From Chroococcidiopsis sp. [FACHB-1243] (lineage in GTDB: Bacteria > Cyanobacteriota > Cyanobacteriia > Cyanobacteriales > Chroococcidiopsidaceae): DNA of 32,000 bases. The position numbers and the translations under genes were made by a program. Shown here piece by piece: positions 185-8,434 of this stretch (the first letter of the stretch is position 1; each line of letters begins with the position of its first letter). The notes beneath the pieces were generated by a model. That model was not told the origin of the DNA and made no database searches. It saw nothing but the letters and a program-made list of their open reading frames with translations. The stretch is taken from positions 31,199-63,198 of the forward strand of contig NZ_JACJQX010000013.1 in NCBI RefSeq assembly GCF_014696895.1, in the 5' to 3' direction.

Positions 185-436
185 ATGGCAAAACCAGATA
201 TTCATCCGCAGTGGTATCCCGAAGCTAAGGTTTACTGCAACGGGGAACTAGTAATGACTGTTGGTTCGACTAAGCCAGAACTCCACGTTGATGTCTGGTC
301 TGGCAATCACCCGTTCTATACTGGAACTCAAAAGATTATCGATACTGAAGGGCGCGTAGAACGCTTCTTGAGAAAATACGGCATGATGGATCCCTCCCAA
401 GCAGGCAATACAGAAGGAAAGCCCAAGAAGAAGTAG
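185..436 (+). CDS. rpmE: 50S ribosomal protein L31
   Basis: 83-aa ORF MAKPDIHPQWYPEAKVYCNGE...HPFYTGTQKIIDTEGRVERFLRKYG is the L31 signature. AGGAAA lies 7-12 nt upstream of the ATG. Confidence 0.95.
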   Translation: MAKPDIHPQWYPEAKVYCNGELVMTVGSTKPELHVDVWSGNHPFYTGTQKIIDTEGRVERFLRKYGMMDPSQAGNTEGKPKKK

Positions 437-545
437 CGCGGTCAGTTCAATTTTGGATTTTAGATTTTGGATTTAAGTTAGAAAAATCTGAAGTCTAAAA
501 TTTTTGTATATGACCCAATCTACTATTTGCTGAGCGATCGCGACT

Positions 546-1646
546 ATGGCGGAACCTTACCTGCTAAATAAGCTCAAATCAGTCGAGCAAACCTACAATG
601 AATTGACTCGTCGCCTTGCCGACCCAGATATCGCTACCGACCCGGTAGAGATGCATCGGGTCGCGAAGGCTCGTTCTTCTTTTGAAGAAGTCGTCAATAC
701 TTATGAAACTTGGAAAACCGCTCAGGAAGAGCTTAAAGGAGCGCGTCAAGTTTTAAAAGAAGCAGCTAGCGATCCAGAGTTGCAAGAAATGGCAGCTTTG
801 GAGGTGCAGGAATTAGAAACTAAATTAGAGCAGCTAGAAGCTCGCTTGAAGGTTTTACTGCTACCCCGCGACCCGAACGATGACAAGAATATTATGTTAG
901 AAATTCGGGCAGGTACTGGTGGCGATGAAGCGAGTATCTGGGCTGGAGATTTAATTAGAATGTATTCCCGCTATGCCGAAACTCAAAACTGGCGCGTCAA
1001 GCTAGTGAGCGAATCTCTGGCAGAAATGGGCGGATTTAAAGAAGCAGTGCTAGAAATTCAGGGCGATTCTGTCTACAGCAAACTCAAGTTTGAAGCAGGG
1101 GTTCACCGCGTTCAGCGCGTACCAGTCACGGAAGCAGGGGGACGAGTTCACACATCTACTGCTACTGTCGCGGTGATGCCAGAAGTGGATGACGTAGAAA
1201 TTCACATCGATCCGACTGAGATTGAAATGAAAACAGCTCGCTCTGGCGGTGCTGGCGGTCAAAATGTTAACAAGGTGGAGACAGCGGTAGACTTATTCCA
1301 CAAACCAACGGGAATTCGGATTTTCTGTACGGAAGAACGCAGCCAGTTACAAAACAAAGAACGGGCAATGCAAATCTTGCGAGCTAAATTGTACGAAATG
1401 AAGCTGCGGGAACAACAAGAAGCTGTTACTTCCATGCGGCGATCGCAAGTTGGAACGGGTTCGCGATCGGAGAAGATTCGCACCTACAACTACAAAGATA
1501 ATCGGGTCACAGACCATCGTTTGGGACAGAATTATTCTCTGAACCCAGTCCTAGAAGGCGATATAGAAATAATTATTCAAGATTGCATCGCTCAAGATCA
1601 GCAGGAACAGTTAGCAGAGTTAGCTGCATCGAGTGCGGGTGCGTAG
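546..1646 (+). CDS. prfA: peptide chain release factor 1
   Basis: 366 aa with the GGQ motif ([16 protein letters not shown]) and an RF1-type PxT tripeptide (RVPVTE). It is one continuous frame with no RF2-type frameshift site. Confidence 0.95.
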
Positions 1647-1844
1647 AGAGCGATCGCGCTTGGATTGATACGGTAAAATATGATGGCATAATCCTTCCTA
1701 AGTTTAGGGAGGGTTAATTTTTTGGTATGTGAGACTAGGCAGGGAAGCTCCCCGTGATGGGAAAATGCGATCGCGCTTTGGAATTTGTGGAGGGAGGAAG
1801 TGCGATTGCAATCTATATCAATTTTCTTTTGATTACCATATATT

Positions 1845-1874
1845 TGTAGGGACGCACATCTGTGCGCCCCCACA
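1845..1874. repeat. REP palindrome, imperfect copy (tgtagggacgcacatctgtgcgcccccaca)
   Basis: Same family as the perfect copies at 2495 and 4271. It carries the GTAG/CTAC-type termini typical of RAYT-recognised REPs. Confidence 0.85.
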
Positions 1875-1908
1875 GATTTGGTATCCTATCCAATCGACAA
1901 CGGCTATA

Positions 1909-2460
1909 TTACTTTAAAGCAGAATTAGTTGGATTGTCTAAATCGTGAAGCCAATTAAAAGGATTATTTATGATGTACTGCTGAATTTTATTTAAAGAAG
2001 CTTCATTGCGAATAACTCGTTCATAATAATTTCGTTGCCAAACTGATATTTTAGGAGTCTGGCGTATTTCGTTAATTTGCTTTGTAGTGGTAGATTTAAA
2101 TCCAGCAATCAATGACGACAGAGAACGCGGTTTTCGACGTAGGGGCGCACAGTTGTTGTGCGCCCCTGAATCTAGTATTCTTACAGAAGATGTGAATATA
2201 ACAATTGCATGTATGTGATTAGGCATGATAACCCATTCATCTAATTCAATTCCTGGTCGAATTGTGGGCGATCGCAAACATTCTTCAGCTACTATACATC
2301 CAACTTTATTCAAGCGCATTTGACAATCCATAACTTCGCCAAATATACATTCTTTTTGGTAGGTACAAATGGTAATAAAGTAAGCACCTGCTTGAGAATA
2401 ATCATAACCACGTAAACGAATAGACTGACGGCGATGAATTTTGGAATTATACGAGGTCAT
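1909..2460 (-). CDS. REP-associated tyrosine transposase (RAYT, Y1/HUH transposase IS200-like)
   Basis: 183 aa. HUH motif in VIMPNHIHAIV, catalytic Tyr region WQRNYYERVIRNE, N-terminal RLRGYDYSQAGAYFITICT typical of cyanobacterial RAYTs, and cognate REPs on both sides. Confidence 0.88.
   Translation of the reverse strand: MTSYNSKIHRRQSIRLRGYDYSQAGAYFITICTYQKECIFGEVMDCQMRLNKVGCIVAEECLRSPTIRPGIELDEWVIMPNHIHAIVIFTSSVRILDSGAHNNCAPLRRKPRSLSSLIAGFKSTTTKQINEIRQTPKISVWQRNYYERVIRNEASLNKIQQYIINNPFNWLHDLDNPTNSALK
2139..2167. repeat. REP-like palindrome embedded in-frame in the RAYT coding sequence
   Basis: gtaggggcgcacagttgttgtgcgcccct. On the minus strand it is translated as ...SGAHNNCAPLRR..., between the HUH and Tyr motifs. 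Confidence 0.8.
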
Positions 2461-2494
2461 TATTAGCTTTTTTCATTGGATGTAATACATGGCT

Positions 2495-2524
2495 TGTAGG
2501 GGCGCACAGCTGTGCGCCCCTACA
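2495..2524. repeat. REP palindrome, perfect 30-nt copy (tgtaggggcgcacagctgtgcgcccctaca)
   Basis: Perfect self-complementarity checked base by base. Identical to 4271-4300. Confidence 0.9.
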
Positions 2525-2675
2525 ATATGCCCGCAGTAATTTATTAAACATAATCTCGATCGCTCGACTTTATATAAGCTTTTAGTTACCTTCATTCAAA
2601 GCTCAAATTCTCTAAGTTTATAGCGTGTAAATTAAGAAAATATTTAGTGATTCTTGGCAGTACGCAAAACATATT

Positions 2676-2700
2676 TGTAGGGGCGCACAGTTGTGCGCCT
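2676..2700. repeat. REP palindrome, slightly truncated copy (tgtaggggcgcacagttgtgcgcct)
   Basis: Same family and the same left-hand extension (aaCATATtTGTAGGGG) as the 4257-4300 copy. It lies 31 nt upstream of the cassette start codon. Confidence 0.85.
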
Positions 2701-2731
2701 GGTTGTATATGAATAAAAATAGGAGTATTTT

Positions 2732-3706
2732 GTGATTCCAATTATTCTTGGTGCTATTGCTTTAGGTACTACAGCTTTTGGTGGGCTTGCGTGTGTCGCA
2801 GGTATGGCTGATATGGATCTAGCAAAAAAAATTGGTGAACGCGCTCAAAAACGCTACAAAAGTAAAGTTAGTCAATTGCAAGCAGACTGGGAAACTGCTA
2901 ACCAGATAGCAGAGGAGTACAGTCAACTTCAGATTGATATCAAAATGTGCACAGTTGGACGTTTTGTTGATTTTATCGAGCGGCGAATTGGTCAGCAAGC
3001 TTCGCAAAGCGATCGGCAGATTTTAGAAGGACTAGAAATTTCAATTCAGCAGCTCAAACAGTATCAAGTTATGGCTATAGAGGCTGAAGAGTGGGTTAAA
3101 GGCGGTTTATCAGCAGCAGTTACAGGTGCAGCAGTAAGTTCTGGGACAATTACACTTGCAAAGTCTGTAGGAACAGCTACAGTAACAAGATTCTTTGGTT
3201 TGTGGACTACTGAAGTAGGTATCTCATCGCTTGGTGGAGCTGCTGCTAGAAATGCAACAATAGCATGGTTAGGTGGTAGTAGTATGGCTGTTGGAGGTTT
3301 TGTTTTGGGAGGTCTGACACTGGGTCCTGCCTTAATGATCGGTGGTTTTCAATTAGCGGGTAAAGCAGAGGAAGCTTTAACCAAAGCACGGAAGTATGAA
3401 GCTGAAGTAAACACGGCAATAGCTCAATTTGACGCAGCAAGAGACTTTCTTCAACAAGCAAGGCGGCAAATTTTTGAGTTAGAGGATTTGGTTAAATTGC
3501 TTAACGATCGAGCTGTTCTAGGTCTTAATGAACTTGAATCATTGCCATCATTTAACAAAGATAGGGATGCTTGTAAATTTCAGCAGCTAGGGCTTTTAAT
3601 AAAAGCACTTACAGAAATTATAAAAACACCTGTTTTAGACAAAAAAGGACTATTGAATCAGGATGCCGTGACTGTCCACGCTAAGTACCGTTATCTAGGA
3701 GTTTAG
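2732..3706 (+). CDS. hypothetical membrane/coiled-coil protein with a central glycine-zipper hydrophobic block (cassette gene A)
   Basis: 324-aa ORF with a GTG start preceded by AGGAG (2721-2725) at 6-nt spacing. Hydrophobic N-terminus MIPIILGAIALGTTAFGGLACVAGMA. Long charged helical segments flank an 85-aa Gly/Ala/Ser-rich hydrophobic region (aa 124-209, including IAWLGGSSMAVGGFVLGGLTLGPALMIGGF). No catalytic motif recognised. Confidence 0.75.
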   Translation: MIPIILGAIALGTTAFGGLACVAGMADMDLAKKIGERAQKRYKSKVSQLQADWETANQIAEEYSQLQIDIKMCTVGRFVDFIERRIGQQASQSDRQILEGLEISIQQLKQYQVMAIEAEEWVKGGLSAAVTGAAVSSGTITLAKSVGTATVTRFFGLWTTEVGISSLGGAAARNATIAWLGGSSMAVGGFVLGGLTLGPALMIGGFQLAGKAEEALTKARKYEAEVNTAIAQFDAARDFLQQARRQIFELEDLVKLLNDRAVLGLNELESLPSFNKDRDACKFQQLGLLIKALTEIIKTPVLDKKGLLNQDAVTVHAKYRYLGV

Positions 3707-3711
3707 TAAAA

Positions 3712-4203
3712 ATGCCTTTGCAATATATTGGCGCAGTATTAACTGCGCTTGAAGCAGCACAATGTTTATCTGGCATTGTTTCAGATTATCAGCAAGTTAC
3801 AGAACAACAAGAAATTAGGCGGCGTGAAATTACAGCTTGGGAGAGAACGACGTTTATAGGGACAGCGGTTTCAGCGTATATAAACTACAAAGAAATTACC
3901 GAACAAGAGCAGACAAAGCGGCGTGAAATTGAAGCGTGGGAAAAAACTACTATCGCGAAAATTAACGCTCAGCGAGCAATATTGATAGGATATCTCGATC
4001 GCTCGTTTGATGAACGAGCAGAAAATTTTCGGGCTTTGTTCAATGTAGTCGATCGCGCAATTACAACAGGCAATAACGAGCAACTAGAAGTAGCCTTACG
4101 TTCAATTACAGAAATAGCGAAATCAAGCCCATTCAAAGAATTTACTAATTTAGCTTCAGTAAAAGCGGCGCTAGACGATCCAAATCACGAATGGGCATTT
4201 TGA
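3712..4203 (+). CDS. hypothetical helical protein with internal tandem repeat (cassette gene B)
   Basis: 163-aa ORF. Its ATG is 5 nt after the stop of gene A, and AGGAG (3697-3701) sits inside the end of gene A. Hydrophobic N-terminus. A 20-aa motif is repeated 33 aa apart (VTEQQEIRRREITAWERTTF and ITEQEQTKRREIEAWEKTTI, 13/20 identical). The C-terminal half looks helical. Confidence 0.7.
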   Translation: MPLQYIGAVLTALEAAQCLSGIVSDYQQVTEQQEIRRREITAWERTTFIGTAVSAYINYKEITEQEQTKRREIEAWEKTTIAKINAQRAILIGYLDRSFDERAENFRALFNVVDRAITTGNNEQLEVALRSITEIAKSSPFKEFTNLASVKAALDDPNHEWAF

Positions 4204-4229
4204 TAAACGTATTGAAATAATACAGATTT

Positions 4230-4330
4230 TGTATGGACGCACGATGGATATTTTGAAATAATACATATCTTGTAGGGGCGCACAGCTGTGCGCCCCTACA
4301 TCATTTATGCGCCCGTACATCTATGCGCCC
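4230..4330. repeat. REP cluster downstream of the cassette
   Basis: Degenerate copy tgtatggacgcac (4230-4243), perfect 30-nt copy (4271-4300), then two half-sites atgcgccc (4307-4330). The units at 4211-4243 and 4253-4283 are direct repeats (ttgaaataatacaNaTNttgtaNgg). Confidence 0.85.
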
Positions 4331-4438
4331 TAACTGATTTATTACCAATACGAATAAATTTGACGTTGGAAATTCCGATCGCTGTTTTCAATACCACAGT
4401 TAAAGCGATCGCCTCCTTCCCATCCAACTAACCTAAAA

Positions 4439-4669
4439 CTACTGCTGAATCTCTCCCCGTGCTAGACGTGTTTCGTACTCTTCTGGATTCCTTGAATAAT
4501 CTGATAAATCTGAAGTGCTAATTTTCAATGCTTCCGTAGATTGCATCCATAGAGCCGAGCGAGTGTTATCTTTGTCTAGTCGCAAAGAGTCTACAAAATG
4601 ACTTACTTCCTTAACAAGCGGTTCTGGCAGTTGGAGAATTTTGGAAATTGTCTCATCATACAAGCTCAT
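4439..4669 (-). CDS. DUF2281-like small protein (putative orphan type II antitoxin)
   Basis: From the ATG at 4669: MSLYDETISKILQLPEPLVKEVSHFVDSL..., with the tail ...EEYETRLARGEIQQ. This N-terminal helix pattern is typical of DUF2281-type antitoxins. AAGGA lies 9-13 nt upstream of the ATG. The TTG start at 4717 in the ORF track was not preferred. Confidence 0.55.
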   Translation of the reverse strand: MSLYDETISKILQLPEPLVKEVSHFVDSLRLDKDNTRSALWMQSTEALKISTSDLSDYSRNPEEYETRLARGEIQQ

Positions 4670-4906
4670 TTGTTTTTCCTTGTTTGAATCAATTGATGCA
4701 CCGAATTTGCGTACCAACAGCCTAATGAAGATAATTCAATATAGAGGTGTGAGGGCTGCGCGTCAATCATGTTAGTCATCTTAGGTGACTTCAACCCAGA
4801 AATTAAGATTCTCAAAATCTTTCCTCTGTCTTGAAGAACGCACCCTACATTTCGCCATTAAATTTTGTTACGATGTCGATGAAGCGATCGCCCTTGGAGA
4901 TACTGA

Positions 4907-6610
4907 ATGCTGCGACTGGAACACATTAGTAAAATTTATCCTACTGGTGAAGTCCTGAAAGATGTGAATTGGGAAGTCAAAGCAGGCGATCGCATCGGTT
5001 TAGTAGGTGTCAACGGAGCAGGCAAGTCTACCCAACTGAAAATAATTGCTGGAGAGATTGAGCCAACCACTGGAGAGGTGATTCGTCCTGCTAGTTTACA
5101 CATAGCATACTTAACCCAAGAATTTGAAGTAGATCCAACTCGTACTGTAAAGGAAGAATTCTGGCGCGCCTTTGTTGCGGCAAACGAAGTTCATGAAAGT
5201 TTGACAAAAGTACAACATCAGTTAGAAACCGCAACACCCGAAGAATTAGATAAACTTCTGCGACAAATGGATCGCTTCCAGCGCCAGTTTGAAGCTTTGG
5301 ATGGTTACAGCTTGGAGGCGCAAATCGATAAAATCTTGCCAGAGCTGGGATTTGAACCAGGAGATGGCGATCGCCTTGTCAGCGCTTTTAGTGGCGGTTG
5401 GCAGATGCGAATGAGTTTGGGAAAGATTTTACTACAAAAACCCGATTTGTTACTTCTAGATGAACCAACTAACCATTTAGATTTAGAAACTATTGAGTGG
5501 TTGGAAAATTACCTGAAAGGGTTAATTACACCGATGGTAATTGTCTCGCACGATCGCGAATTTCTCGATCGCCTTTGCACTCAAATTGTCGAAACTGAAA
5601 GGGGAGTTTCTACAACATATTTAGGCAACTATTCAATTTATTTGCAACAAAAGTTTGAAGCGAAGGAAGCACAACAAAGTGCCTACGAACGGCAACAGAA
5701 AGAACTTGATAAACAGCAAGCTTTTGTCGATAAATTTAGAGCTAGTGCTACTCGCAGTACGCAAGCAAAAAGCCGCGAAAAACAATTAGATAAAATCGAG
5801 CGTGTCGAAGCACCGATATCTGACTTAAAAACCCTGCATTTTCGCTTTCCACCCGCACCCCGTAGCGGACGAGAAGTGGTGAAAATTCAAGATTTAACCC
5901 ATATATATGACGACAAAATCTTATTTTTAGGTGGAAACCTCTTAATAGAAAGAGGCGATCGCATTGCTTTTCTCGGTCCCAATGGTGCGGGTAAATCTAC
6001 ATTACTGCGTCTGATTACGGGAATGGAGGAGCCGACAGAAGGAGCTGTCGAACTGGGTGCTCATAACGTGATTCCTAGCTATTTTGAGCAGAATCAAGCA
6101 GAAGCCTTAGATTTAAACAAAACCGTCATGGAAACGATCCATGATGAAGTTCCCGACTGGACGAATGAAGAAGTTCGCACGTTGTTAGGAAGATTTTTAT
6201 TTAGCGGCGACACGGTATTTAAAAAAGTTGCAGCCTTAAGTGGAGGCGAAAAAGCCCGTCTTGCCTTAGCAAAAATGCTGCTACGTCCGGCAAATTTATT
6301 AATTTTAGATGAGCCGACAAATCATTTAGATATTCCAGCGAAAGAAATGCTGGAAGAAGCAATTCAAAACTACGATGGTACGGTACTGATCGTTTCTCAC
6401 GATCGCTACTTCATCTCTCAAGTTGCCAACAAAATTATTGAAATTCGCGATGGAGAATTTCGAGTTTATTTGGGAGATTACCATTACTACCAAAACAAAT
6501 TAGCAGAAGAACGAGAACAGGAAAGACAAGCTGCGATTGCTACCGAGCAAGCTGCTAAAAAAGCCGTCAAAGCCGCTAAAGCTGCCGCTAAGAAAGGGAG
6601 TAGGGGTTAG
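4907..6610 (+). CDS. ABC-F family ATPase (two ABC domains, no TM domain; translation-factor type)
   Basis: 567 aa. Two Walker A motifs (GVNGAGKST, GPNGAGKST), two signature motifs (FSGGWQMR, LSGGEKAR), two Walker B motifs (LLLLDEPTNHLD, LLILDEPTNHLD), an inter-domain linker and a Lys/Ala-rich tail. Confidence 0.93.
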   Translation: MLRLEHISKIYPTGEVLKDVNWEVKAGDRIGLVGVNGAGKSTQLKIIAGEIEPTTGEVIRPASLHIAYLTQEFEVDPTRTVKEEFWRAFVAANEVHESLTKVQHQLETATPEELDKLLRQMDRFQRQFEALDGYSLEAQIDKILPELGFEPGDGDRLVSAFSGGWQMRMSLGKILLQKPDLLLLDEPTNHLDLETIEWLENYLKGLITPMVIVSHDREFLDRLCTQIVETERGVSTTYLGNYSIYLQQKFEAKEAQQSAYERQQKELDKQQAFVDKFRASATRSTQAKSREKQLDKIERVEAPISDLKTLHFRFPPAPRSGREVVKIQDLTHIYDDKILFLGGNLLIERGDRIAFLGPNGAGKSTLLRLITGMEEPTEGAVELGAHNVIPSYFEQNQAEALDLNKTVMETIHDEVPDWTNEEVRTLLGRFLFSGDTVFKKVAALSGGEKARLALAKMLLRPANLLILDEPTNHLDIPAKEMLEEAIQNYDGTVLIVSHDRYFISQVANKIIEIRDGEFRVYLGDYHYYQNKLAEEREQERQAAIATEQAAKKAVKAAKAAAKKGSRG

Positions 6611-6617
6611 AAAAAAA

Positions 6618-6698
6618 GACAAGGGAGACAAGGGAGCATTCGGAATTACAATCCAAAATCCAAAATTCCCTCACTCCTCACTCCTCACTCCTCACCCC
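6618..6698. repeat. STRR-type repeat arrays (GACAAGGGA x2, AATCCAAA x2, CTCACTC heptamers)
   Basis: gacaagggagacaagggag, aatccaaaatccaaaatt and ctcactcctcactcctcactcctcacccc read directly in the spacer between the ABC-F gene and gpmI. Confidence 0.8.
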
Positions 6699-6771
6699 TT
6701 CCAGAAGGCGATCCCCATTAGAAAAGCTGAAAGATATAGTAGAGAAAATGACAAAATCAGCAAAAAAACCC

Positions 6772-6799
6772 TTGCAGAGACGATCGGTAGTGGTATCAT
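6772..6799 (+). promoter_or_regulatory. putative sigma70-type promoter for gpmI (TTGCAG-N16-TATCAT)
   Basis: Hexamers at 6772-6777 and 6794-6799, 37 nt upstream of the gpmI ATG. This is a pattern match only. Confidence 0.3.
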
Positions 6800-6835
6800 G
6801 ACGGGTGAGTTAACAAAAGTAAAGGGTAACATCGT

Positions 6836-8434
6836 ATGACCCAAGCACCTGTTGCTCCCGTGGTGCTAGTGATATTAGACGGATGGGGTTATCGCGAGGC
6901 AGCAGACGGTAACGCGATTTCATCTGCAAAAACTCCTGTAATGGATAGCCTCTGGGCAGTTTATCCCAGAACTCTAATTCGCACTTCAGGCAAAGCAGTA
7001 GGGTTGCCAGAGGGTCAAATGGGCAACTCGGAAGTCGGACACCTGAATATTGGTGCAGGGCGAGTTGTACCGCAAGAATTAGTCAGAATTACAGACGCGG
7101 TCGAAGATGGTTCAATTGGGCAGAACGCAGCGATCGCCCGGTTGTGCCGAGAAGTCAAAGACAGAGGCGGTAAATTGCACCTAATCGGCTTATGCTCGGA
7201 AGGTGGGGTACACTCCCACTTAAGCCACTTGTTAGGATTGCTAGACTTAGCGAAGGCGCAAAAGCTCGCTCAAGTATGCATCCATGCAATTACAGATGGA
7301 CGCGATACAGCACCTACAGAAGGCTTGGAAGCTCTCGAACAGATTCAAGAACACGCAGATTCAATTGGTGTTGGTCAGATCGTCACTCTAAGCGGTCGTT
7401 ACTACGCAATGGATCGCGATCGCCGTTGGGATCGCGTTAAACGTGCTTACGATGTGATGACTCAAGACGGTGTAGGCGACGGGCGATCGGCAGTTGAGGT
7501 CTTACAAGCTTCCTACGATGAGGGAGTCACTGATGAATTTGTCATCCCTATACGGATCGCTCCAGGAGCAGTAGAACCAGGTGATGGCGTACTCTTTTAC
7601 AATTTTCGCCCCGATCGCGCCAGACAGCTCACTTATGCTTTTGTCAAGCCAGACTTTGACGGCTTTGAACGGCAGCAGATCGAGCCTTTATCATTTGTCA
7701 CGTTTACGCAATACGACTCTGAATTGTCGATCCCTATAGCTTTTGAGCCACAAAATCTGAACAATATTTTAGGCGAAGTCATCGCTCACCACGGACTGAA
7801 ACAATTTCGTACCGCAGAAACAGAAAAATACGCCCACGTTACCTACTTTTTTAATGGCGGCTTAGAAGACCCATTTGCAGGTGAAGATCGGGAAATGGTA
7901 ATGAGTCCGATGGTGGCGACCTACGACAAAGCGCCAGCCATGTCAGCTGAAGCGGTGACTGATGTAGCGATCGCCGCGATCGAGCAACAAGTTTACTCCC
8001 TGGTAGTCATTAACTATGCAAACCCTGATATGGTAGGTCATACAGGTGATATAGGTGCGACTGTAGAAGCAGTTGAAACTGTCGATCGCTGTTTGGGACA
8101 TTTATTGGAAAGTATCGGTCAAGTAGGAGGCACGGCATTAGTCACAGCCGATCACGGTAACGCTGAATCCCTCCGCGACGAACAGGGAAATCCTTGGACG
8201 GCACACACGACTAATCCAGTCCCCTTCATTTTAATTGAAGGTGAAAAAGCGAAGATCCCGGGTTACGGTACAGAGGTAGCGCTTAGGAGTGACGGCAAGC
8301 TTGCCGATCTCGCGCCGACGATTCTAGAAATCTTGCAGCTTCCCCAACCAGCCGAGATGACTGGTCAATCTTTAATTGCTCCAGCTAAGTATGAAGTACA
8401 ATCTTCCCGTACTCCTGTCAGAATGGGCTGGTAA
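6836..8434 (+). CDS. gpmI: 2,3-bisphosphoglycerate-independent phosphoglycerate mutase
   Basis: 532 aa. VVLVILDGWG..., NSEVGHLNIGAGR, ADHGNAE and the overall iPGM length and architecture. Confidence 0.95.
   Translation: MTQAPVAPVVLVILDGWGYREAADGNAISSAKTPVMDSLWAVYPRTLIRTSGKAVGLPEGQMGNSEVGHLNIGAGRVVPQELVRITDAVEDGSIGQNAAIARLCREVKDRGGKLHLIGLCSEGGVHSHLSHLLGLLDLAKAQKLAQVCIHAITDGRDTAPTEGLEALEQIQEHADSIGVGQIVTLSGRYYAMDRDRRWDRVKRAYDVMTQDGVGDGRSAVEVLQASYDEGVTDEFVIPIRIAPGAVEPGDGVLFYNFRPDRARQLTYAFVKPDFDGFERQQIEPLSFVTFTQYDSELSIPIAFEPQNLNNILGEVIAHHGLKQFRTAETEKYAHVTYFFNGGLEDPFAGEDREMVMSPMVATYDKAPAMSAEAVTDVAIAAIEQQVYSLVVINYANPDMVGHTGDIGATVEAVETVDRCLGHLLESIGQVGGTALVTADHGNAESLRDEQGNPWTAHTTNPVPFILIEGEKAKIPGYGTEVALRSDGKLADLAPTILEILQLPQPAEMTGQSLIAPAKYEVQSSRTPVRMGW

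Follow-up and report, generated by a model that had tools for sequence, protein, structure and literature searches.

What kind of system is encoded by two small adjoining genes, here termed A and B, in the cyanobacterium Chroococcidiopsis sp. FACHB-1243, and why does their chromosomal locus, fixed in position, stay polymorphic? The DNA analyzed, hereafter the window, is a stretch of 32,000 nucleotides (nt) of contig NZ_JACJQX010000013.1, in which A is 100% identical to H6G17_11695 of this strain. A first-pass annotation, made from the letters alone, had proposed a two-gene module with a membrane-type component and possible toxic or defensive function. The tightly coupled module proves genuine, and we tentatively lean toward reading it as a two-component membrane-acting conflict module of the phage-defense/abortive-infection or addiction type. 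The genes, called as open reading frames (ORFs), and their Shine-Dalgarno (SD) sites are:

2721 to 2725, plus strand: AGGAG SD site of A, 6 nt ahead of the GTG
2732 to 3706, plus strand: gene A, GTG start, 324 amino acids (aa)
3697 to 3701, plus strand: AGGAG SD site of B, within the last codons of A, at the 10-nt upper end of the 6-10 nt spacing
3712 to 4203, plus strand: gene B, ATG start, 163 aa

The 5-nt gap between the genes and both AGGAG sites were reproduced as first reported, and the sites are indeed peculiar to this pair, as, of the 23 longest ORFs in the window that do not overlap, no others are preceded within 20 nt by a 5-mer SD core. The GTG start of A is supported by the N-terminal sequence MIPxILGA conserved among homologs. 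Because the SD site of B sits in the last codons of A, translational coupling is suggested; in distant relatives, A and B overlap by 4 nt.

The coupling of A and B extends far beyond this strain, and the pair is widespread among cyanobacteria. B lies directly downstream on the same strand in 86/86 loci found through A, and A lies upstream in 76/76 testable loci among 80 metagenome loci found through B motifs (the upstream DNA of the remaining four is too short to tell), which bears out the co-occurrence that had been put forward as a check. The two genes either lie 2-5 nt apart or overlap by 4 nt. Across orders, the A and B sequences are 51-66% identical, and the pair also occurs in contigs of 53-71% guanine-plus-cytosine (GC) content that are clearly non-cyanobacterial, with a 4-nt overlap and a partner that aligns with B.

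Hydropathy and composition agree with the layout first sketched for A, namely a hydrophobic N-terminus, a charged helical stretch, a Gly/Ala-rich block and a helical end. The N-terminal hydrophobic segment spans aa 4-22 (Kyte-Doolittle (KD) value 2.03), and residues I2, P3, I5, L6, G7 and A8 are invariant in a 30-sequence alignment. There follow a long, charged helical arm 1 (aa ~27-122), an 86-aa block (aa 124-209; G18 A14 L10 T10 S8 V7, with 4 charged residues in all) and helical arm 2 (aa 205-322); a second peak of transmembrane (TM) grade at aa 185-203 (KD 1.79) marks a glycine-zipper segment at the end of the block. An AlphaFold2 (AF2) model has helices at 14-88, 105-122, 205-270, 276-298 and 310-322 (mean predicted local distance difference test score (pLDDT) 61, predicted TM-score (pTM) 0.59); its arms are confident, and residues 1-21 and 125-209 are of low confidence or undefined. 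Positive charges come after both hydrophobic segments. Because of this charge distribution and the conserved, TM-like N-terminal anchor, hydropathy and charge suggest a resident membrane protein, and the same trailing charges would be consistent with a topology in which the anchor is N-out, both arms are cytoplasmic and the hairpin passes into the membrane and back out.

Protein B is predicted (AF2) to be all-helical, with one very long helix (aa 3-119) and then a small helical C-terminal part, and over its last ~110 residues it hardly varies from genus to genus (YLDRSFDERAENFR...SPFK...HEW.F). The repeated motif noticed at first reading is present at both protein and DNA level: TEQQEIRRREITAWERTT (aa 30-47) and TEQEQTKRREIEAWEKTT (aa 63-80) lie 33 aa apart and correspond to the following feature.

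3794 to 3851 and 3893 to 3950 (span 3794 to 3950), plus strand: duplicated units in B, 99 nt apart, 74% nt identity

This duplication separates a long form of B (163-166 aa, two E..TKRREI.AWEK units), to which the window protein belongs, from a commoner short form (~130-135 aa, a single unit). The N-terminus of B, first described as hydrophobic, is moderately so, but it is not conserved; because its KD value is 1.49 and it is missing from the short form, it is, judged by sequence, not a conserved membrane segment. Many B homologs of ~134 aa bear the JGI label 'ribonucleotide reductase alpha subunit', which no search supports and which looks like an annotation artifact. Descent of B from the C-terminal arm of A, as a paralog, was also considered: hhalign gave a probability of 44% (E 2.3e-4) with cyanobacterial alignments and of 0.9% with broader ones, leaving the relation unconfirmed.

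Single-sequence and profile searches yielded no Pfam, NCBIfam, PHROGs or PDB-sequence family for A or B beyond coiled-coil noise. The first-pass statement that neither protein has a catalytic motif is matched by the lack of any catalytic family in the Pfam, NCBIfam and PDB-sequence searches, and no characterized housekeeping family was hit in these or in the PADLOC searches. Its broader statement that there is no recognizable family stands for Pfam, NCBIfam and PDB sequences but fails for A, which matches the PADLOC family PDC-M09A (PDLC04407, E 3.8e-16, 57.5 bits, aa 32-271; PDLC04406, E 4.5e-12). PDC-M09 is a PADLOC phage defense candidate, a two-gene cassette FAM_02775>>FAM_02807 with 380 RefSeq instances (Payne et al., bioRxiv 10.1101/2024.01.29.577857), and is one of 145 candidates nominated by their embedding in BREX, DISARM or type I restriction-modification (RM) loci (bioRxiv 10.1101/2024.01.29.577857). 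The match of the window A is distant (57 bits vs 304 for a true member); that member belongs to a true PDC-M09 pair on an IMG/VR contig, L099, with an A of 287 aa (304 bits) and a B of 482 aa (553 bits). Identity of the window B with PDC-M09B can be dismissed, as neither it nor six other B-type partners match the PADLOC models of PDC-M09B at E <= 1, against 553 bits for the L099 protein.

An exhaustive profile search places A in a superfamily that, grouped at 50% identity, comprises 3,105 clusters at E <= 1e-3 and 519 at E <= 1e-30; the usual length is ~320-330 aa. PDC-M09A is matched by 141 of 150 superfamily representatives (best 7.6e-37), and the core ASTGTAIS.LSGAAA.NATLAWLGGGSLA.GGGG...VLGG...P.L..GG..LA..GEKALT.A is common to relatives with ~30% identity. 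Profiles of the LeoBC and LeoA stalk regions are weakly matched by 14 and 2 of the 150 (best E 7.7e-7), a lead only, which may reflect coiled-coil composition. One representative also matches BnzA (Bunzi) at 1.3e-16. Variant architectures include P0371 (175 aa), which resembles the A N-terminus joined to a B-like segment, possibly through deletion; P0384 (432 aa), which bears a YkvA/DUF1232 name; P0274 (765 aa); and P0242 (545 aa). The sole significant structural match of the A model is BFVD entry A0A5C2IFQ2, an unnamed 336-aa viral protein (E 9e-4, TM 0.53, 18% identity), probably a phage-borne family member. An IMG/VR phage contig (L097, 7653-8975) encodes a 440-aa protein that has the Gly-rich core motif (GTASTGTAISTLHGIAKTNATMANIGGGALSVGGAGIAGG) only, in another architecture with further hydrophobic segments at the C-terminus, and the core may thus be a transferable module. 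A literature search found no text mentioning PDC-M09 and nothing relevant on glycine zippers in phage defense. The A superfamily is thus known as a bioinformatic candidate only, and the B-type partner, the N-terminal anchor, the cross-phylum A-B coupling and the block-wise reassortment of alleles discussed below are undescribed in the literature searched.

Members of the superfamily keep different company in other genomes, as two loci illustrate:

L095, 6604 to 11509: prophage segment with tyrosine integrase, solo A-like gene (338 aa), PDC-S02 PD-(D/E)xK protein and toxin-antitoxin (TA)-like genes (by eye)
L100 (metagenome contig Ga0116172_10001092, 37% GC), 298 to 8272, all on the same strand: two DUF1232 genes, PQ-loop, DUF5658, an unknown gene, A, B, TerB, another unknown gene and a dynamin-family GTPase (835 aa)

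In L095 and L096, IMG/VR prophage contigs of 27% GC, the A-like gene without a partner directly follows the prophage integrase, a typical prophage-end accessory or defense position. A TerB-like gene comes directly after B in L088/L089, L100 and L179; L100, the one locus with a dynamin-family GTPase neighbor, is possibly a larger membrane-stress operon. Partner use by A is modular, as it is in effector/sensor systems: B-type, PDC-M09B-type, none, or A-B followed by TerB.

The position of the pair was compared across 83 loci, mostly from other cyanobacterial genomes (80 from a genome scan, L003, L005 and the window); the loci were ascertained by searching for A or B, and the counts below therefore cover genomes that carry the pair. 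A Nostocales-type slot, NnrU-thioredoxin-ndhF-ndhD...A-B...LapA-like, PGM/PMM, PDDEXK, transglutaminase, was recognized on at least one side in 57/83 loci and on both sides in 26, and this ndhD...PGM slot is the location in most Nostocales. Inside it are variable small genes (DUF433/DUF5615, ParE, BrnT/BrnA, Uma2, PemK, DUF29), and TA-like genes lie within three genes of A-B in 34/83 loci. A second slot, prfA-RAYT-A-B-small ORF-ABC-F-gpmI, is occupied in 4/4 Chroococcidiopsis-clade genomes, namely the window, CCNUC1, 'Scytonema millei' VB511283 and CCALA 051. A tblastn search of 50,697 phage genomes for a phage origin returned nothing, and IMG/VR yielded 5 distant relatives only; the plasmid collection gave a sole match, an A-B copy on a Leptolyngbya plasmid. 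The cassette is thus not an obviously hopping island. The first-pass picture of a mobile cassette bracketed by repetitive extragenic palindromic (REP) sequences in a variable island was right about the REPs and the adjacent transposase gene but, given these fixed slots, too simple. A fixed syntenic position, which that annotation had counted against its own proposal, is found in part, in the 4/4 and 57/83 loci just described. What varies is the allele, not the position.

This variation is sharpest among strains that are otherwise nearly identical. Across the four Chroococcidiopsis-clade strains the flanking prfA, ABC-F and gpmI proteins are 96-99% identical, and the window A is 88.6%, 90.3% and 56.6% identical to its counterparts in the other three. 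The four strains carry four different A-B haplotypes assembled from exchanged tracts with sharp borders:

3101 to 3500, plus strand: recombination tract 1, Gly-rich hairpin and start of arm 2 (aa ~126-262), window vs CCNUC1
3501 to 3900, plus strand: recombination tract 2, C-terminal ~68 aa of A and N-terminal ~60 aa of B, window vs CCALA 051
L091 7027 to 7998 and L092 600 to 1571: A ortholog of S. millei VB511283, annotated as two ORFs (169 + 141 aa)

In tract 1, the nt identity between CCNUC1 and the window is 74-89%, compared with 97-100% over the rest of A; synonymous divergence (dS) there is 0.675 and nonsynonymous divergence (dN) 0.147, with dS of 0 in aa 1-125 of A, 0.08 in prfA and 0.116 in ABC-F. 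CCALA 051 is 98-100% identical to the window up to 3500, 2-86% in 3501-3900 and 96-98% from 3901 onward; it carries the short B, so the long or short form travels with the tail of A. The window A belongs to subtype sub1, which has an FFGLW insert. In S. millei the whole of A is sub2, 72-77% identical to Nostoc sub2 alleles vs 57% to the window, and its codon for the invariant Trp179 is an in-frame stop (NATLA*LGGG) in two assemblies, with an intact B downstream, which points to dispensability or counter-selection. Among Nostocales, sub1 and sub2 both occur in the same slot, the long B accompanies only sub1-type or unclassified A, and segment-discordant allele pairs are common as well. Because synonymous divergence is saturated, the variable tracts are best taken as imported alleles; hypermutation by a diversity-generating retroelement was ruled out on the same ground and from the lack of a second copy of the variable tract in the window. 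In sequence terms, recombination has brought divergent alleles into a locus whose position is fixed, a pattern typical where selection is diversifying or frequency-dependent but not typical of housekeeping genes.

The immediate surroundings of the pair in the window comprise the housekeeping genes rpmE, prfA, ABC-F and gpmI, together with these smaller features:

1909 to 2460, minus strand: RAYT (REP-associated Y1 transposase), Y1_Tnp E 1.1e-7, with REPs at 1844-1873 and 2494-2525 on either side
2476 to 2525: upstream REP, palindrome 2494-2525 plus a 5' extension
2676 to 2699: partial REP, 33 nt upstream of the A start, also scoring as a terminator-like hairpin
4252 to 4329: downstream REP, palindrome 4271-4300 followed by a degenerate copy 4301-4329, terminator-like
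4439 to 4717, minus strand: 92-aa ORF with a weak match to DUF2281 (antitoxin-like), E 0.0085

The reported REP copies on both sides of the cassette and the adjoining RAYT gene are thus real. The REP is a 32-nt perfect palindrome, TTGTAGGGGCGCACAGCTGTGCGCCCCTACAA, with copies at 2494-2525 and 4271-4300 and partial copies at 2676-2699, 1844-1873, 2139-2172 and 4301-4329; no copy lies outside 1.8-4.3 kb in the 32-kb window. The best direct repeat around the cassette pairs 2476-2524 with 4252-4300 (49 nt, 90%). The downstream REP has a 13-bp stem and then a T-rich tail, and REPs here may serve as terminator or as substrate for recombination. RAYT is neighboring context, any action of it on A-B being hypothetical, and A-B homologs in most genomes have no RAYT neighbor. 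Its ORF holds an internal REP-like copy (2139-2172), and RAYT is 78-87% identical between the strains whose flanking proteins are 96-99% identical and so appears to be part of the fast-changing segment too. The 92-aa ORF is 89-99% conserved in the three other Chroococcidiopsis-clade genomes, with no adjoining toxin partner seen.

In composition the cassette departs modestly from its surroundings, much as first estimated by eye. HIP1 octamers number 0 in A and B, 3 in ABC-F and 64 in the window (2.0 per kb), a depletion that is marginal (Poisson probability 0.05 for none in 1472 nt). The GC fraction is 0.416 for A and 0.409 for B, which leaves a modest gap to the window (0.449) and to gpmI (0.495); that in GC at third codon positions (GC3) is larger, with 0.26 for A and 0.30 for B compared with 0.35-0.44 in the flanking genes and 0.27 in RAYT.

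How might such a pair work? If A-B is a conflict module, A would be an inner-membrane effector with a short N-terminus outside and TM1 at aa 4-24; arms 1 and 2 would lie in the cytoplasm, on either side of a transmembrane hairpin (aa ~125-205) of the glycine-zipper kind. Its glycine-zipper helices would assemble as homo-oligomers, and if the arms opened or rearranged, the hairpin would become a leak, pore or membrane lesion. B, an elongated helical cytoplasmic protein made in step with A via translational coupling, would bind the cytoplasmic arms and act as latch, sensor or antidote; the C-terminal arm is its most plausible site because that arm recombines together with the N-terminus of B. 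Topology, A-B binding, membrane damage, trigger and anti-phage effect are all inferred. A conflict module is supported by the homology of A to PDC-M09A; by the prophage, IMG/VR, plasmid and viral-structure contexts met elsewhere; by modular partners combined with obligate A-B coupling; by allele diversification at a fixed site and the S. millei nonsense allele; and by low GC3, HIP1 absence and the TA-like neighbors in 34/83 loci. The early term 'defense-like' thereby gains indirect support from PDC-M09A homology, integrase-side relatives and locus reshuffling. A good deal weighs on the other side. PDC-M09 is itself a candidate, so that the sole 'defense' label is guilt by association; the window A scores far below true PDC-M09A members, and B has no PADLOC match. 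Throughout whole clades the position of the pair is constant, phage and plasmid collections contain almost no copies of it, and in the window it has housekeeping neighbors, not a defense island. Purifying selection acts on it, with dN/dS ~0.2 even in the exchanged tract, and strong SD sites are not expected a priori on a self-toxic effector. Finally, the membrane region of the A model is of low confidence, and Foldseek searches of the PDB with that model (best E 0.1) gave no significant match to any known pore former.

Several of these points would suit the main alternative, a pair that serves membrane stress or remodeling and has no immune role, A shaping or repairing the cytoplasmic or thylakoid membrane with B as a soluble co-factor; by analogy, its nearest counterparts would be bacterial dynamin-like proteins, with their stalk-plus-paddle, or mitofusins, with their HR-TM-TM-HR layout. 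We regard this as possible, though rather unlikely. It would account for the fixed slots (57/83 loci with one flank or both recognized, 26 of them with both; 4/4 in the Chroococcidiopsis clade), for strong conservation under purifying selection and for SD sites suggestive of steady expression. The L100 cluster, with two DUF1232/YkvA membrane proteins ahead of A-B and with TerB and a dynamin-family GTPase of 835 aa after it, fits as well, as do the TerB-like genes after B in L088/L089 and L179, one family member that is fused to YkvA/DUF1232 and the weak but recurrent LeoBC/LeoA matches (14 and 2 of 150, best E 7.7e-7). However, housekeeping genes do not usually show replaced alleles and mosaic tracts among strains whose flanking proteins are 96-99% identical; in addition, the allele of one strain is a nonsense allele, and GC3 and HIP1 content are atypical. 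The dynamin neighbor occurs in one locus only, the LeoBC/LeoA matches may reflect coiled-coil composition alone, and neither the PDB sequence search (no BDLP or LeoA) nor Foldseek (BDLP E 0.41) lends structural support; moreover, LeoA/LeoBC and TerB are tied to defense or stress-conflict systems, so that this explanation overlaps that of a conflict module.

The nonsense allele bears differently on a chromosomal toxin-antitoxin or addiction pair without an anti-phage role, in which a membrane toxin A and a protein antidote B would form a selfish unit swapped by recombination: in S. millei the putative toxin is interrupted and B is intact. Two small co-translated genes in obligate linkage, surroundings rich in TA genes (DUF433/DUF5615, ParE, BrnT/BrnA, PemK) and a plasmid copy also suit such a pair. 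We nevertheless think it improbable, as neither protein matches a TA family in Pfam, NCBIfam or PADLOC, the putative toxin comes first, B lacks a DNA-binding domain, A with its 324 aa and long arms greatly exceeds known membrane TA toxins in size, and the C-terminus of B, very conserved across phyla, suggests more than neutralization. The likeness to ClyA and XaxAB drawn in the first-pass annotation lacks statistical support, and we hold it highly implausible that A and B are an alpha-helical pore-forming toxin pair like ClyA, XaxAB or YaxAB, secreted or released to act on other cells. A does have a hydrophobic segment between long helices, and pore-state chains of SmhB, AhlB and ClyA are among the top Foldseek PDB matches, but these are non-significant (E 0.16-0.8, TM 0.22-0.35, root-mean-square deviation >16 A; best E of any PDB match 0.1). 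No sequence profile relates A or B to any solved structure, the N-terminal TM-like anchor and charge pattern fit a resident membrane protein, B is not a reproducible paralog of A, and no secretion genes were seen among the neighbors of A-B. A conflict module remains the reading to which we incline.

A bolder version of a conflict module, which we consider speculative and on present evidence doubtful, is that A-B is an undescribed, ancient two-gene membrane immune or self-protection module in which balancing or frequency-dependent selection maintains allelic diversity. Chroococcidiopsidales and Nostocales would share, at fixed slots, no fewer than two classes of allele, sub1 paired with the long B and sub2 with the short one, and three blocks would be reassorted: the boundary between arm 1 and hairpin, the hairpin itself, and the tail of A joined to the head of B. 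Were this so, the blocks would map specificity, with the hairpin determining trigger or target and the block of A tail and B head serving as latch, and A would be the first characterized member of a superfamily of ~3,100 clusters of glycine-zipper effectors whose partners (B-type, PDC-M09B, TerB, dynamin-like) are interchangeable. The superfamily is large, reaching from cyanobacteria to Firmicute prophages and high-GC bacteria, with no Pfam family and no solved structure, and the cyanobacterial A-B is a clean, compact and easily cloned representative, for which the natural chimeras among near-clonal Chroococcidiopsis strains point to segments that act as units. Its function, once shown, would give a function to a class of PADLOC candidates, lengthen the very short list of cyanobacterial membrane-acting defense or stress modules, and explain why a fixed-position chromosomal locus stays polymorphic.

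With the ClyA family (ClyA, AhlB, SmhB, XaxAB/YaxAB) A-B shares a long helical bundle with a hydrophobic hairpin and more than one component; it differs in an A that is anchored and resident-looking, a B that is no paralog, the lack of a secretion context, and the lack of significant fold or sequence similarity. With dynamin-like proteins such as Eleos (LeoA/LeoBC), and with the HR-TM-TM-HR part of mitofusins, it has in common helical stalk arms beside a membrane-inserting hydrophobic tip and, in L100, a dynamin-family GTPase two genes downstream; unlike these, A has no Dynamin_N or GTPase match, the LeoBC/LeoA matches are found in relatives but not in the window A, and solved BDLP and LeoA structures offer no support. 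No known type II toxin or antitoxin family was found for A or B in Pfam, NCBIfam or PADLOC. A REPtron is represented in the neighboring gene, not in A-B, by a Y1-transposase-like RAYT flanked by REP palindromes, with further REP copies on both sides of A-B; no cargo genes are known for REPtrons. PDC-M09 and A-B are both two-gene operons with the A-type gene first, and A is homologous to PDC-M09A over aa 32-271, with the shared core ...ASTGTAIS.LSGAAA.NATLAWLGGG...GG..VLGG...P.L..GG..LA..GE.ALT.A..Y set between helical arms. The window A, however, has a conserved N-terminal hydrophobic anchor outside the PDC-M09A profile, its partner is a helical protein of 130-165 aa without similarity to the ~480-aa PDC-M09B, and the pair does not lie inside an RM, BREX or DISARM locus. 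Because its B is unrelated to PDC-M09B, the window pair is, on comparison of the proteins, not a PDC-M09 system but a sister architecture with a different partner.

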